A stretch of 64,000 nucleotides of DNA from an uncultured Candidatus Saccharibacteria bacterium (GCA_964471165.1 CAYYEX010000001.1:65037-129036), one strand, 5' to 3'. Positions 5,209 through 53,434 are shown, counted from the first letter of the stretch. Numbers and translations are program-made. The notes: generated by a model from the letters alone, not told the origin.

Positions 5209-5798
5209 CGCAAAGCGGCAAAGCGGCGTCGTTCTCGCTCGAAGTCCGGGCGAACTTCGTCTTGAACCTCCGGAAAAAATATCTTTTTATTGAAATCCCT
5301 ATCTGTCTTCTCCAGTCCCCATTTCAAAATATCGGCCTTTGTCTCTCCTCGTGCTGTAAAGTTCTCCACCGCAAAATCATAAAAATCTGTTTGCAGGTGA
5401 ACTACCGCATCTGCAGTTGCCATTATCTTCCCCTCGAGGGTTCGAGGTGCATCCCCATCCCTGCAGCTGTGATATTTGATTGCATCGTCAACGATGAGCG
5501 TAATCTCTGCATCGGTAAATCCCGATAGTCGCAAAAGGCCCCGTGCAATGGCCATACTCTCCTGTTCGTGCCGCGGGTCTTCTCGCGACATAACGGCGTC
5601 GGCTACGTCGTGCAACATTGCCGCTGCTACTACCAAATCCACGCCCGCACCAAACCGCACGGCCAATTCCCTCGCCTTATCAGCCACCTTAAACACATGG
5701 CTCGTGTGCAAATAATCTGCCCAGTCTTTTGCTCGGCTCGTGTTCTTGTCTAGATACAAGGCATCAATCCGATCTTTAAGTGCCTCGATTCGATTCAT
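5205..5798 (-). CDS. HD-domain phosphohydrolase
   Basis: H...HD motif ([10 protein letters not shown]) and a downstream conserved D (ATADAVVH). Typical HD superfamily layout. Confidence 0.7.
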
Positions 5799-16299: not shown

Positions 16300-16300
16300 T

Positions 16301-16317
16301 CTGGGGGACTTGGAATC
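16301..16317 (-). repeat. 17-nt exact copy of tRNA-Gln 3' end (GATTCCAAGTCCCCCAG), 182 nt downstream of the tRNA
   Basis: ctgggggacttggaatc at 16301-16317 equals 16499-16515. A second degenerate copy ...cttgtcccccag lies at ~16330-16345. Confidence 0.85.
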
Positions 16318-16498
16318 CCCATCGACTCATAATATCAGCCGTCGCTTCTGGGGGACAAGGAGCGCTCGCATGAGCTCGCTTTTTGAGAACCCACGGTTCT
16401 CAACGTGTCTTCGCACTGCTCTCCTCCACGGGAAACTACCGTTTCCCGCCCCCTTCACTTCCAAGTCCCGCAGGACTCGTTCATTTCATTCTCTCGTG

Positions 16499-16569
16499 CT
16501 GGGGGACTTGGAATCGAACCAAGATACGCAGCTTCAAAGGCTGCTGTCCTACCGTTAGACGATCCCCCA
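16499..16569 (-). tRNA. tRNA-Gln (anticodon UUG)
   Basis: Reverse complement TGGGGGATCGTCTAACGGTAGGACAGCAGCCTTTGAAGCTGCG...GGTTCGATTCCAAGTCCCCCAG. U1-A72 pair, G73 discriminator, anticodon loop CTTTGAA. CCA not encoded. Confidence 0.85.
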
Positions 16570-31205: not shown

Positions 31206-32240
31206 CTAGAGACTGAAATTTTTTACCGAGTACAAGTCTTCGGTCTCCTTCGTTTCTTCGGGCGTGGGCTCCGGTTGTGGCTCCGGCATTGTTTCTGCTT
31301 CCACTGGGACTGCTGGTGCCGCCTCCGGTGCCGCAACTGTTTCTGCGACGACTGCCTGCACGTTTTGCGGCGCGAGCGTAGCAATGGTTTGCGCAGCGGA
31401 CTGTGTGGTAAGTGCGATGCAAAGATTCGTCAAATCCTCCGGTGAGAAAAAGTCGATGTGGAGTTTGCCACCTGTGTCTTTCTTTTCGATGCGCACGCGC
31501 GTGCCAAGCCGCTCGGAGAGCTGCTTTTCGAGCGACATCAAGTCCGGTGACACGAGCGCCTTGTGGCGCACACGCTCAATCGCTACACGGCGCGCGAGTG
31601 CTTCTGCGTCGCGCACGGTCAGTCGGCGCGCAATAATCTCCTTGAAGAGTGTCATCTGTTCCTCGATTCTGTCGGCGAGCATCAAAAGCGGACGAGTGTG
31701 TCCCTCGCTAATCTCACCTTGTTCGAGCGCGGTCTGCATCCCTTCCGGAAGCGCAAGAATGCGCAACGTGTTTGAAACGTACTCGCGGCTTTTTCCGACA
31801 CGGGCACCGATTTCCTTGTGCTGGAGTCCGAATTGGTCGACGAGTTGCTTGAATGCTTTTGCGCGGTCGAGCGAATTAATGTCTTCACGCTGCAAGTTCT
31901 CGATGATAGCGAGCTCGAGTTTCATCTGGTCGCTATCTTCGGCGGTGCGAATGACAACCGGCACCATCGAGAGCCCTGCGAGCTTGGAGGCACGCAGACG
32001 CCGCTCCCCCGCAATCAATTCATATGCGACAGAAATCCCCTCACCCGGTCGCTCGGTTTCTTTGCGAGTGACGGTGAGCGGCTGAAGAATGCCGTACTGA
32101 CGAATAGACTCAGCAAGCGACGCGAGAGCTGCCTCGTCGAAGGTTTTTCGGGGCTGGTAGGGGTTCGGAGAAATCCTATCTACCTCAACCCAATATATTG
32201 AATCCATCATTCCTCCTGCCATATGACGCGATTGTAACAT
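31206..32240 (-). CDS. parB: chromosome partitioning protein ParB/Spo0J with Pro/Glu-rich C-terminal tail
   Basis: ParB box GERRLRA, HTH, C-terminal dimerisation region. No parA adjacent. Confidence 0.85.
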   Translation of the reverse strand: MLQSRHMAGGMMDSIYWVEVDRISPNPYQPRKTFDEAALASLAESIRQYGILQPLTVTRKETERPGEGISVAYELIAGERRLRASKLAGLSMVPVVIRTAEDSDQMKLELAIIENLQREDINSLDRAKAFKQLVDQFGLQHKEIGARVGKSREYVSNTLRILALPEGMQTALEQGEISEGHTRPLLMLADRIEEQMTLFKEIIARRLTVRDAEALARRVAIERVRHKALVSPDLMSLEKQLSERLGTRVRIEKKDTGGKLHIDFFSPEDLTNLCIALTTQSAAQTIATLAPQNVQAVVAETVAAPEAAPAVPVEAETMPEPQPEPTPEETKETEDLYSVKNFSL

Positions 32241-32316
32241 GCACCATTATTTGTTTTCGGGGGAAAAAAGCCGTAGACTTCACCGCATCGTCCTAGAACT
32301 CGCTTTTGGGAACGAT

Positions 32317-32398
32317 GCCGGAGTGGCGGAATTGGTATACGCGAACGACTCAAAATCGTTTGTCGAAAGGCATGAGGGTTCGAGTCCCTCCTCCGGCA
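32317..32398 (+). tRNA. tRNA-Leu (anticodon CAA), type II with long variable arm
   Basis: GCCGGAG/CTCCGGC acceptor stem, anticodon loop CTCAAAA, T-arm GAGGGTTCGAGTCCCTC, discriminator A. Confidence 0.85.
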
Positions 32399-32404
32399 CA
32401 AAAA

Positions 32405-32440
32405 TACAAAAGACGGGACATTGTCCCGTCTTTTGTATTT
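32405..32440 (+). terminator. Rho-independent terminator after tRNA-Leu(CAA)
   Basis: AAAAGACGGGAC-attg-GTCCCGTCTTTTGTATTTT. Confidence 0.7.
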
Positions 32441-32573
32441 TGTAGAGCGGGGTGGAACGAGAAAGTGAGGACTGGGGCCCCGCGAGTACGCGGGGATGTC
32501 CGAGCAGGGCCGAGCGGAGAAAAGTTCTGACGAGAACTTTTCGAGCGCTTGGCCGAGTCCCTCCTCCGGCACA
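32441..32573 (+). repeat. ~130-nt tRNA-Leu-associated structured element ending in a 20-nt exact copy of the tRNA-Leu(CAA) 3' end
   Basis: Contains hairpins CCCCGCG-agta-CGCGGGG and GAAAAGTT-ctgacgag-AACTTTTC. Ends cgagtccctcctccggcaca, equal to the tRNA at 32381-32400. Homologous element at 53261..53393. Confidence 0.8.
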
Positions 32574-32575
32574 AA

Positions 32576-32956
32576 TTAAGAACGCTTCCCAAACCAACGG
32601 TGGCGGTTCGAGGCGATAATACGATACACCAGGGCACCAAGGTGCTTAATGCCCGGTAGGGCCGAAATGGGAGCCACATACCTCCCGAGCGGGTGCCACC
32701 GCAGTATCACAATCACCGCATCGATTCCCCGATACATCACGCCGTTTTCGTCCATCGCGTGCATTTGGTACATGAGCGCTTCCTTACTCATTCCCTCCGG
32801 CAGGGTTTCTGACGCACCCACCGCATCTAAGTCGATATCTGTACGCAATTTCTTTACTGTGCTCTCGCAAAGATCGCACGAATCGTCGTAGAACACTGAG
32901 CGCCGTCCGGGATGGTCTACGTGATTATCCATACAAAGTATTGTACTGTGCCGCAA
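32576..32956 (-). CDS. thiol-disulfide oxidoreductase DCC family protein (DUF393)
   Basis: VFYDDSCDLCESTV is the YDGxCxLC signature. True start may be the internal Met (at 32932). Confidence 0.7.
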   Translation of the reverse strand: MRHSTILCMDNHVDHPGRRSVFYDDSCDLCESTVKKLRTDIDLDAVGASETLPEGMSKEALMYQMHAMDENGVMYRGIDAVIVILRWHPLGRYVAPISALPGIKHLGALVYRIIASNRHRWFGKRS

Positions 32957-38013: not shown

Positions 38014-38057
38014 AAAACTCCCCGCATGGCGCATCTTTCATTAGGGTGCGGGCGATG

Positions 38058-38073
38058 TAGGAAACTCTCTAGC
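38058..38073 (-). repeat. 16-nt exact copy of tRNA-Trp 3' end (gcgggcgatgtaggaa), ~150 nt downstream of the tRNA
   Basis: Identical to 38221-38236. An inverted degenerate copy (tcgattcctaca...atcgccca) lies at 38153-38195. Confidence 0.8.
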
Positions 38074-38218
38074 CTCTCAGTTCGCCGTCGCTCACTTCGG
38101 GCTGGGCACCGCCTCGCACCCGCGCGTGCTCGCGCGGGACCCGCTCCGGCGCTCGATTCCTACACGCACAGCGCCCCACGCTATGCTATCGCCCACCGTT
38201 TTCACTATGTTCAAACTT

Positions 38219-38292
38219 TTGCGGGCGATGTAGGAATCGAACCTACACTAGCGGTTTTGGAGACCGCTGTTCTACCACTAAACTAATCGCCC
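38219..38292 (-). tRNA. tRNA-Trp (anticodon CCA), CCA encoded
   Basis: Reverse complement GGGCGATTAGTTTAGTGGTAGAACAGCGGTCTCCAAAACCGCTAGTGTAGGTTCGATTCCTACATCGCCCGCCA. Anticodon loop CTCCAAA. Confidence 0.85.
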
Positions 38293-46751: not shown

Positions 46752-46814
46752 TTGAGGCCACAGCGGGAGTTGCACCCGCCCATAGCGCAATTCTACAAAC
46801 AGAGCAGACCGCCG
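46752..46814 (-). repeat. partial copy of the tRNA-Cys 3' half (36 nt identical plus cagaccgccg), ~95 nt downstream of the tRNA
   Basis: ttgaggccacagcgggagttgcacccgcccatagcg repeated at 46752-46787 and 46851-46886; cagaccgccg at 46805 and 46893. Confidence 0.85.
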
Positions 46815-46853
46815 TGCGGAATGGGATTGAGTTGAAGAATCTATATTTTTTTG

Positions 46854-46925
46854 AGGCCACAGCGGGAGTTGCACCCGCCCATAGCGGTTTTGCAGACCGC
46901 CGCGTTGCTACTTCGCCATATGGCC
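46854..46925 (-). tRNA. tRNA-Cys (anticodon GCA), unusual T-loop (G at position 55)
   Basis: Reverse complement GGCCATATGGCGAAGTAGCAACGCGGCGGTCTGCAAAACCGCTATGGGCGGGTGCAACTCCCGCTGTGGCCT. 7-bp acceptor with G-U, anticodon loop CTGCAAA, U73 discriminator typical of Cys. T-loop TGCAACT is atypical. Confidence 0.6.
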
Positions 46926-49103: not shown

Positions 49104-49176
49104 GCGCTCATAGCTCAGCTGGTAGAGCAGTCGCCTCTTAAGCGAACGGTCCCAGGTTCGAATCCTGGTGGGCGCA
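49104..49176 (+). tRNA. tRNA-Lys (anticodon CUU)
   Basis: GCGCTCATAGCTCAGCTGGTAGAGCAGTCGCCTCTTAAGCGAACGGTCCCAGGTTCGAATCCTGGTGGGCGCA. Anticodon loop CTCTTAA. Confidence 0.85.
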
Positions 49177-49190
49177 CAAAGACGAAACAA

Positions 49191-49214
49191 ACCTGGCCTG
49201 CGCCAGGTTTTTTC
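49191..49214 (+). terminator. Rho-independent terminator after tRNA-Lys
   Basis: AACCTGGC-ctgc-GCCAGGTTTTTT. Confidence 0.7.
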
Positions 49215-49343
49215 GCTTTGTGCGGGCCGGAGCCATGTCGCAAAAGCTTTTGCGACGGGCGAGGCAGGGTCGTGGAATTTTCCGAGCGGCGGCGAGGAAA
49301 ATATCCCTGACCACATGTGGCCCTACACCGGCGAGACGAGGGA

Positions 49344-49354
49344 GAATCCTGGTG
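49344..49354 (+). repeat. 11-nt copy of tRNA-Lys T-arm/acceptor junction (gaatcctggtg) 176 nt downstream of the tRNA
   Basis: Identical to 49161-49171. Weaker than at other tRNAs but at the same characteristic distance. Confidence 0.4.
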
Positions 49355-53134: not shown

Positions 53135-53216
53135 GGGCAGATGGCGGAATTGGTATACGCACTAGCCTTAGGAGCTAGCTCCGTAAGGATTGGGGGTTCG
53201 AGTCCCCCTCTGCCCA
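53135..53216 (+). tRNA. tRNA-Leu (anticodon UAG), type II
   Basis: GGGCAGA/TCTGCCC acceptor, anticodon loop CTTAGGA, variable arm TCCGTAAGGATTG, T-arm GGGGGTTCGAGTCCCCC. Confidence 0.85.
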
Positions 53217-53260
53217 CAAAAATCATTAGAGCCAGGGCATGACCTGGCTCTAATGATTTT
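53217..53260 (+). terminator. long hairpin terminator after tRNA-Leu(UAG)
   Basis: AAAAATCATTAGAGCCAGG-gcatga-CCTGGCTCTAATGATTTT. Confidence 0.75.
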
Positions 53261-53393
53261 CGGGAGGTGGATGAGACGAGAAGGCGAAGGCTGGGGACCC
53301 CGCGAGCACGCGGGGATGCCTGAGCGTAGTCAGGCGGAGAAAAGTTTTGACGAAAACTTTTCGAGCGCTTGACCGAGTCTCCCTCCGCCCACA
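53261..53393 (+). repeat. ~130-nt tRNA-Leu-associated structured element (homolog of 32441..32573) ending in an 18/21 copy of the tRNA-Leu(UAG) 3' end
   Basis: CCCCGCG-agca-CGCGGGG and GAAAAGTTTT-gacg-AAAACTTTTC hairpins. Ends cgagtctccctccgcccaca. Closing stem GGCGGAG...CTCCGCC possible. Confidence 0.8.
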
Positions 53394-53400
53394 CAAATAC

Positions 53401-53434
53401 AAAAGACCGAGGAATGCCTCGGTCTTTCGTATTT
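53401..53434. terminator. hairpin terminator similar to the one following tRNA-Leu(CAA)
   Basis: AAAAGACCGAGG-aatg-CCTCGGTCTTTCGTATTT. Confidence 0.65.

Follow-up and report, generated by a model that had tools for sequence, protein, structure and literature searches.

The tRNA-Leu(CAA) gene of an uncultured Candidatus Saccharibacteria bacterium is followed, on its own strand, by a hairpin and then by a folded stretch of DNA whose last part repeats the 3' end of that same tRNA. This locus raises the question of what such a unit is, whether it belongs to this gene alone, and how it came to stand there. The window, meaning the whole 64-kb stretch of DNA that was analysed, contains one copy of the unit behind tRNA-Leu(CAA), termed W1, and another behind tRNA-Leu(TAG), termed W2. 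The order of the unit is T (the hairpin), S' (the local tRNA, T54 to 3' end, in reverse complement), the scaffold, and S (the tRNA 3' end repeated in direct orientation). The features of the W1 locus, in positions of the window, are:

32317 to 32398/32399, plus strand: tRNA-Leu(CAA), called by ARAGORN and by the Rfam tRNA model (60.4 bits), with no encoded CCA
32381 to 32402, plus strand: proximal S, the last 18 nt of the tRNA from C56 and 4 nt of trailer, matching 32554-32575 at 22/22 positions (BLAST)
32401 to 32441, plus strand: T, a terminator-like hairpin with a 19-bp stem (32401-32419/32423-32441), the loop att and a T-rich 3' arm (sequence and fold)
32443 to 32463, plus strand: S', the 5' arm, degenerate, ending in CGAGAA and not CTCGAA (alignment A2 and arm comparison)
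32465 to 32505, plus strand: hairpin P2, with a GA/GA-flanked base, a G-rich internal loop and the loop AGUA (RNAalifold and pair counts)
32469-32472/32498-32501, plus strand: P2a, the 4-bp helix of P2
32478-32484/32489-32495, plus strand: P2b, the 7-bp helix of P2
32508 to 32554, plus strand: hairpin P3, with the 9-bp P3a, a GA/GAG internal loop, the 10-bp P3b and the loop GACG (RNAalifold and pair counts)
32554 to 32575, plus strand: distal S, 22 nt identical to proximal S and directly adjacent to the DCC stop codon
32576 to 32956, minus strand: convergent DCC-family ORF, its stop codon directly at the end of distal S

The 22-nt direct repeat starts at C56 in the T loop, ends 4 nt beyond the discriminator, and encloses both the hairpin and the folded element, which occupies a 133-nt G+C-rich stretch 3' of T that ends at 32575; by our own arithmetic, about 2e-4 such exact repeats are expected by chance in 64 kb. 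The first-pass annotation had read the locus as a tRNA, a hairpin and a structured element, and ARAGORN, Rfam and folding agree with this layout. Both hairpins that it quoted exist, and the folds of W1 and W2 are far more stable than their shuffles (z = -4.5 and -4.9). It had described an exact 20-nt copy of the tRNA end that stops 3 nt short of the convergent DCC gene: the repeat and its closeness to the stop codon are real, but the copy is 22 nt long and runs directly to that codon, leaving no gap. Moreover, it had overlooked the 5' antisense arm, which is degenerate in W1 and W2 and clear in their relatives.

Fold of the element and the strand that carries it

Further features of the window belong to the same family or stand next to its copies:

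53135 to 53217, plus strand: tRNA-Leu(TAG), called by ARAGORN and Rfam
53219 to 53260, plus strand: T of W2, with an 18-bp stem (sequence and fold)
53262 to 53395, plus strand: W2, a family-1 copy, with S' at 53262-53282, the scaffold at 53283-53374 and distal S at 53375-53395
53402 to 53427, plus strand: second terminator, behind the distal S of W2, called by the terminator scan and 78% identical over 64 nt to the hairpin of the W1 locus
38045 to 38175, minus strand: distant family member behind tRNA-Trp (38221-38292, minus strand), found by the covariance model at 30.9 bits (E = 6e-8)

The same covariance model scores W1 at 134 bits and W2 at 128 bits. The distal S of W2 is an imperfect copy of the tRNA-Leu(TAG) 3' end, and the arms of the tRNA-Trp copy are tgtaggaatcga (S') and ttcctacatcgcccgc (S). 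The homology first proposed between the two leucine loci extends over 113 nt at 83% identity (BLAST), with 75 of 91 scaffold positions identical, and is not limited to the tRNA-derived end. The proposed check for compensatory changes is equally favourable: among 32 scaffold pairs, 24 are identical in W1 and W2, 4 are changed on both sides, 3 on one side (G-U/A-U), and 1 is broken. An intrinsic terminator is a G+C-rich stem followed by a T run. T of W1 is T-rich in its 3' arm and tail, but a simple terminator scan does not flag it and calls in T of W2 only a shorter 5-pair inner hairpin (53234-53251). A sigma-70 promoter scan of the window loci finds no promoter, not even at the tRNA genes, which makes it uninformative here.

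The scaffold, of about 90 nt, forms a three-way junction in which the hairpins P2 and P3 stand between the arms. Across the family, in P2 a base flanked by GA/GA leads through a 4-bp helix to a G-rich internal loop, which is followed by a 7-bp helix with an AGNA loop; in P3, helices of 9 and 10 bp are separated by a GA/GAG internal loop, and P3 includes the invariant CGGAGAAAAG...CUUUUCGAGCGCUUG. Analysis of 21 copies by RNAalifold and pair counting finds the helices of P2 and P3 paired at 96-99% and 15 scaffold pairs changed on both sides; covariation as high is reached in 0 of 500 shuffles, and the signal falls sharply when the pairing partners are slid by 1-3 columns. The unpaired nucleotides of the junction are invariant across copies. 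The third helix, P1, is formed by S' and S and stacks on P3; its inner part, about 7 bp, is paired in 80-90% of the copies and its outer part in about 40-60%. P1 is weak in W1, and in W2 it is kept through a compensatory GAGAC/GUCUC change.

The fold also indicates the strand. Every copy has exactly one G-U pair in P3a, at either of two adjacent positions, which on the opposite strand would be an A-C mismatch, identifying the tRNA strand as the one that folds; moreover, the model scores 134 bits on the plus strand and 19 bits on the minus strand. An RNA of the minus strand is excluded on both grounds. The covariation and the G-U pattern thus show that a single strand with the polarity of the tRNA must fold; read-through RNA would most simply provide it, by analogy with RtT. 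Two other readings of the scaffold were rejected. Specifically, CUGACGAG, which could be taken for a hammerhead or box C/D motif, is the apex of P3, whose stem and loop vary with covariation; a peptide-coding function, as for tpr in the RtT RNA of E. coli, fits poorly with variation that is compensatory in the stems and not codon-like.

Size and hosts of the family

A scan of genomes, one per species, with the conserved core of P3 as the pattern returns 18 loci, 12 of which carry the whole element, all in Saccharibacteria or Paceibacteria MAGs; the other 6 are chance matches in coding sequence. Scanning metagenomes yields 10 further loci. The hosts in these loci are tRNA-Leu, His, Val, Ser, Gln, Gly, Tyr and Ala and, at locus L001, tmRNA. 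The covariance model, built on 21 copies and run over 153 kb of fetched loci, recognizes about 30 copies, among them further ones behind tRNA-Arg, Trp, His and Leu(GAG), and brings the hosts to 11 tRNA kinds plus tmRNA. These relatives by themselves would place the window in a bacterium of the candidate phyla radiation (CPR; Patescibacteria). Standard copies are uniformly 136-137 nt long (21 aligned). The first-pass annotation had proposed a defined, repeated family associated with leucine tRNAs: a repeated, structured and tRNA-linked family it is, but the leucine association is not supported, since the same family occurs behind His, Val, Ser, Gln, Gly, Arg, Tyr, Trp and Ala tRNAs and tmRNA, and since the window itself holds the distant relative at tRNA-Trp and scaffolds of the same logic at tRNA-Gln and tRNA-Lys.

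The search of Rfam that had also been suggested identifies no family: at gathering and permissive thresholds, the window, both of its copies and nine further loci return only tRNAs and, on the hairpin, chance miRNA-like matches. ARAGORN and the Rfam tRNA model call no cloverleaf on the element. BLAST of the window copy against phage and plasmid collections gives no match, and a scan of viral contigs with the core pattern gives 2 matches, of which the one inspected is apparent coding sequence without the element. The only ORF cluster common to the loci is the translation of the element itself; specifically, an all-against-all BLASTP comparison of the ORFs of 25 loci reveals no recurrent neighbouring protein family and no integrase adjoining any copy. 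A literature search for a prior description in CPR found none, the Patescibacteria tRNA literature that it returned being on a different subject, namely group I introns in anticodon loops. The element represents a real, strongly supported and apparently undescribed structured family.

Some copies depart from the standard arrangement. Intact family-1 copies with their hairpins in L030 and L024 have no recognizable tRNA upstream, just degenerate T-arm-like sequence, indicating that an element can persist after its tRNA is gone. In a Saccharibacterium (L010, 3223-3443), the family-1 copy that follows tRNA-Leu(CAA) has about 85 nt of extra hairpins between P2 and P3, which implies that the scaffold tolerates expansions. 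At L005 (389-920), a segment of about 490 nt with a 68-codon ORF and its own terminator stands between two units whose arms are those of tRNA-Leu(GAG), and looks like captured cargo.

Other tRNA genes of the window are followed by related arrangements. Downstream of tRNA-Gln (16498-16569, minus strand), an element at 16300-16475 follows the same logic with another scaffold: its S' (ctgcgggacttggaa) lies 24 nt after the tRNA, the scaffold contains ...CGAGCGCTCCTTG and is followed by a partial S, and the full S (gattccaagtcccccag) lies 180 nt downstream. Behind tRNA-Lys (49104-49177, plus strand), a terminator hairpin precedes an element of a second family ("family 2"; 49178-49354, GGCCGGAGCCATGT...CAGGGTCGTGGAATTTTC...GAAAATATCCCTGACC), with an antisense arm of just 5 nt and a partial S of 11 nt; this hairpin and element are 90-98% identical to positions 1019-1160 of L005, from a Paceibacteria MAG, and family 2 is also nested within the S' of a family-1 copy in L006. 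Lastly, tRNA-Cys (46853-46925, minus strand) has an exact direct repeat of at least 24 nt of its 3' end (gggtgcaactcccgctgtggcctc) at 46754-46777, 75 nt downstream, with no hairpin, antisense arm or scaffold in between; this is a simple remnant of the att type or else an element whose scaffold has been lost.

Arms, turnover and decay

Neither arm is a constant part of the element, and both S' and the terminal tRNA copy follow the host tRNA. The length of S' is about 20 nt, and S' stops exactly at the complement of T54 in all copies, and S, also of about 20 nt, is a direct copy of the host tRNA segment from C56/G57 on. The match extends to unusual hosts: at L025, where the T loop is TCCGATT, S' reads AATCGGA. 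The host there (5262-5333) is called tRNA-Ala(GGC) by ARAGORN, and the Rfam tRNA model is silent on it at E up to 0.5. At G-U pairs of the tRNA (in the T stem at L009, at pair 4:69 at L017), S' is the Watson-Crick complement of the 3' strand, which indicates that S provides the template for S', or that selection keeps the two able to pair, and that S' is not the leftover of a duplicated tRNA.

Two pairings are available to S', forward with distal S or back with the tRNA 3' end, the latter giving one hairpin of about 40 bp. The duplex with the tRNA's own S is the stronger of the two (-32.6 versus -21.6 kcal/mol, means of 23 copies), in 20 of the 23 copies (Wilcoxon p = 6e-6, the copies not being independent). 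The distance from T54 to the start of the element is 60-68 nt in nearly all single copies, and the direct repeat of the tRNA 3' end is 21-25 nt long in L025, L012 and L005. The quality of the two arms is inversely related: a perfect distal S tends to accompany a poor S', and the reverse (Spearman -0.52). W1, with its perfect distal S, and W2 belong to the group with a poor S'; since their scaffolds are intact, a need for S' is not what lies behind scaffold conservation here. In all tRNA-His copies, distal S is split by a conserved insert of 21-26 nt (e.g., cgatagt[acgctgcgctagactccttacccgcg]tcgccca; L005 2900-2950, L017 285-330 and 485-535, L021 5950-6000), and L005 has a small, similar piece between tRNA and hairpin as well.

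Occupancy of orthologous tRNA genes is patchy. The DCC-tRNA-Leu(CAA)-ParB locus was compared with its counterparts in relatives that share 58-67% identity in the DCC protein: in L032 the tRNA is followed by a family-1 copy that has diverged (86.9 bits) and differs in P3, in L034 by something else, and in L036 by no recognizable copy in the about 95 nt up to the contig end. In addition, the segment of the window that holds tRNA-Leu(CAA) and its trailer (32240-32576) is inverted relative to DCC and ParB when compared with four related genomes (compare L032 2855-3161, L034 and L036), and the limits of the inverted block are the two acceptor-stem strands, namely the tRNA 5' end and distal S. At tRNA-Tyr, a family-1 copy is present in L028, and the window has a terminator alone. 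Across three Paceibacteria contigs with a neighbouring protein 77-82% identical, tRNA-His is followed by one copy, by two tandem copies, or by one copy and a remnant. In these orthologues T and S' (59-62 nt) are 100% conserved, more than the tRNA itself, with P2 swapped, and a G/A change in S' tracks a C/T change in the tRNA; conservation of T and S' above that of the tRNA points to host selection and not to a passive repeat.

Tandem or decayed copies occur at L004, L008, L009, L017 and L025, decayed ones standing beside intact ones at L004, L008 and L025. The nearest relatives of a scaffold are often found at other tRNAs in other genomes (92-96%): the W1 scaffold is 93% identical to that of a tRNA-Ser copy, the W2 scaffold 92% identical to that of a tRNA-Val copy, and a Paceibacterota scaffold 96% identical to one from Saccharibacteria. 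Homologous T hairpins likewise recur at different tRNAs (tRNA-Leu of W1 and tRNA-Tyr of L028; tRNA-Gly of L029 and tRNA-Leu of L010), with compensatory changes in their stems. Among the close relatives compared, no pair of occupied and excised or empty sites was caught, and no recombinase or other machinery was identified. The similarity of scaffolds across genomes could reflect strong purifying selection together with gene conversion, and not movement.

Known relatives in design, propagation and function

RtT RNA, known for decades and described in older literature as released by processing, is the closest known system (RF00391; rttR and the repeats of 178 bp in the E. coli tyrT-tyrV operon, with a further occurrence behind proK). 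Like the CPR element, it follows a tRNA gene immediately, on the tRNA strand, and finishes with a copy of that tRNA's 3' end. In RtT, a 5' antisense segment pairs with this terminal copy and closes a branched scaffold of about 90 nt, by a helix that in the CPR copies is well paired mainly in its inner part. Specifically, the tyrT-tyrV unit consists of GGGGAAGGAU, antisense to the T stem and acceptor of tRNA-Tyr, the branched scaffold and AAUCCUUCCCCCACCACCA, and the Rfam structure pairs the two arms. The arms of RtT also differ between tRNA-Tyr copies and the tRNA-Pro copy, each matched to its host; the proK unit lies between two copies of the same terminator hairpin, one of which separates the tRNA from the element; and units are arranged in tandem, at 1-14 places per E. 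coli genome. Even the GAGAA right behind S' is common to the W1/W2 subtype and RtT. According to the E. coli annotation and to a statement quoted in 10.1101/2024.07.17.603846, RtT is released as a stable RNA from the tRNA operon transcript, and its mode of action is still described as unknown (10.1101/2024.07.17.603846).

Despite these likenesses, the two are not detectably homologous in sequence. The Rfam RtT model (gathering threshold 45 bits), which recovers four copies in E. coli at 133-138 bits, has no match on W1 or W2 at E up to 10 or on nine further CPR loci at E up to 0.5, and the CPR model gives just 5.7 bits on RtT. The scaffold topologies differ as well, with two independent hairpins in CPR and a stem enclosing two hairpins in RtT. 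The CPR S', of about 20 nt, extends the terminator stem into a long hairpin with the tRNA, whereas that of RtT is 8-10 nt long and does not; CPR copies lack CCA, like their tRNA genes and in contrast to RtT; and the CPR host range, with at least 11 tRNA kinds plus tmRNA and apparently the majority of the tRNAs in a genome, is far wider.

Mobile elements offer partial parallels. Genomic islands and phages that integrate into tRNA and tmRNA genes through tyrosine integrases, with the T loop as sublocation, share the direct repeat starting in the T loop, the regenerated tRNA, the tmRNA target and the tandem arrays, but the CPR insert is only about 175 bp, has no integrase or gene, and features a conserved single-strand fold and an inverted target copy. 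Integron attC sites and the attP(+) of CTX phage resemble it in a strand-specific hairpin that is kept over sequence and in a stem that could mimic a double-stranded target. This is resemblance only, as the CPR element has no integron integrase or phage context and its stem changes with the target. REPINs and MITEs are likewise short, multi-copy, intergenic, near terminators and bounded by inverted terminal arms, with no gene of their own; in contrast, the inverted arms in CPR are copied from the tRNA and the element is strictly behind tRNA or tmRNA genes in one orientation. A MITE is defined by terminal inverted repeats that are constant for the family, with a short target-site duplication, whereas S' and S differ at every tRNA.

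The explanation that is tentatively preferred, with confidence a little short of even, is that the family is a non-autonomous, recombination-propagated element of the 3' flanks of CPR tRNA and tmRNA genes that gives rise to a structured read-through RNA. The recombination part of this reading draws on a direct repeat beginning in the T loop, on tRNA and tmRNA genes as targets, on occupancy that is patchy and changes, on copies in tandem or in decay, on the hairpins and scaffolds shared between loci, and on the lack of any linked gene. The element would spread and multiply as the conserved T-arm and 3' end of tRNA genes recombine, and the inserted unit would supply a replacement 3' end and a terminator, so that the tRNA would stay intact and its old 3' end be displaced downstream; the 22-nt repeat of W1 would then be the displaced original 3' end. 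Correction templated by the hairpin of the S-T-S' palindrome, or else selection, may keep or make S' complementary to the resident tRNA. Under this scheme, the inverse relation between S' and distal S would be a young-to-old trajectory. Read-through past T would produce the structured RNA, by analogy with RtT, and since the end of the S'/S helix resembles the acceptor/T helix, tRNA-processing enzymes could release it. None of the models tried accounts for the source of the arms when one scaffold turns up at another tRNA. Duplication of S and the hairpin as a target site fits L009, L017 and E. coli proK and fails at W1, L025, L012 and L028, where the flanking hairpins differ; fold-back synthesis predicts a 44-nt repeat that is not seen.

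A miniature site-specific integrative element, one of the two main rivals and unlikely on balance, would have as its excised unit a small single- or double-stranded circle (S-T-S'-scaffold) in which the S:S' stem mimics the duplex of the tRNA 3' end, and a tyrosine recombinase, of the host or acting in trans, would exchange strands in the T loop (compare CTX phage with XerCD, and attC), regenerating the tRNA and displacing the old 3' end. The segment from the T loop to the tRNA end is the classic att-repeat position of tRNA-integrating islands, and the direct repeat running from C56/G57 to just beyond the tRNA end falls there. The use of tRNA and tmRNA genes as targets, the tandem arrays and a strand-specific folding that tolerates G-T/G-U also agree with such an element, and a functional S-T-S' stem would predict that S' pairs better with the S of the tRNA itself, as it does. 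However, no copy has an integrase next to it, the phage and plasmid records contain no match to the window copy, and the pattern matches in viral contigs are apparently due to chance. Moreover, a single integrase would have to act on over 11 different tRNA sequences, a jump to another tRNA would leave a chimeric, dead tRNA, and RtT in E. coli has no continuous S-T-S' stem.

The other main rival, a host-beneficial, tRNA-specific guide or regulatory RNA, is also doubtful as the overall explanation. Its scaffold would bind a protein and its S' would pair, in cis or in trans, with the 3' half of the neighbouring tRNA for processing, modification near T54/Psi55, quality control or decay, distal S masking the guide until use. 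The persistence of S' complementarity where distal S decays would suit a guide, as would the end of S' exactly at the complement of T54 in all copies, the co-variation of S' with the tRNA in orthologues and the conservation of T and S' above the tRNA; the constant size, the invariant unpaired junction nucleotides and the very high scaffold conservation between Saccharibacteria and Paceibacteria would suit a protein-bound scaffold. Conversely, occupancy is patchy, the family differs at orthologous tRNAs, decayed copies are common, and W1 and W2 have lost S' complementarity with the scaffold kept; in addition, the terminator hairpin stands between tRNA and guide, no partner protein is known, and neutral, palindrome-templated correction can also keep S' matched.

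A programmable, nucleic-acid-guided system aimed at tRNA 3' ends, whether genes or transcripts, in which the scaffold would be the handle and the arms would be re-templated for each tRNA, is similarly improbable. If true, the family would be either a self-retargeting mobile element that copies its target with no protein gene, or a set of dedicated CPR guide RNAs, one per tRNA, and the RtT of E. coli would be a relic of the same principle.

Leftover att sites of decayed prophages or islands once integrated in these tRNA genes are very unlikely to explain the family. Direct repeats of tRNA 3' ends downstream of tRNA genes, including the scaffold-free repeat at tRNA-Cys, are what such remnants would leave, but the constant 136-nt length and the covarying fold largely refute this origin, and the presence at most tRNAs, the antisense copy among the arms and the lack of phage genes and of matches in phage collections speak against it as well. 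The weakest reading, a degenerate tRNA duplicate such as a pseudo-tRNA or minihelix remnant, can practically be set aside: the element does end like a tRNA and S' equals the 5' acceptor and T-stem strands wherever these are Watson-Crick, but S' follows the complement of the 3' strand at the G-U pairs of L009 and L017, which refutes this origin for the copies examined, and S' also covers the T-loop complement, the scaffold is common to unrelated tRNAs, and the Rfam tRNA model has no match on the element.

A folded module placed between antisense and sense copies of a tRNA 3' end is a design widespread in reduced CPR genomes, where the element appears to stand behind a large share of the tRNA genes examined, as well as behind tmRNA. 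For annotation, these elements yield spurious ORFs and repeats of tRNA 3' ends that may be mistaken for island boundaries. This strongly supported structured RNA family is new to Rfam, and its dozens of independent instances, with arms that change from one tRNA to the next, provide comparative material for the function of the element and the origin of its arms.
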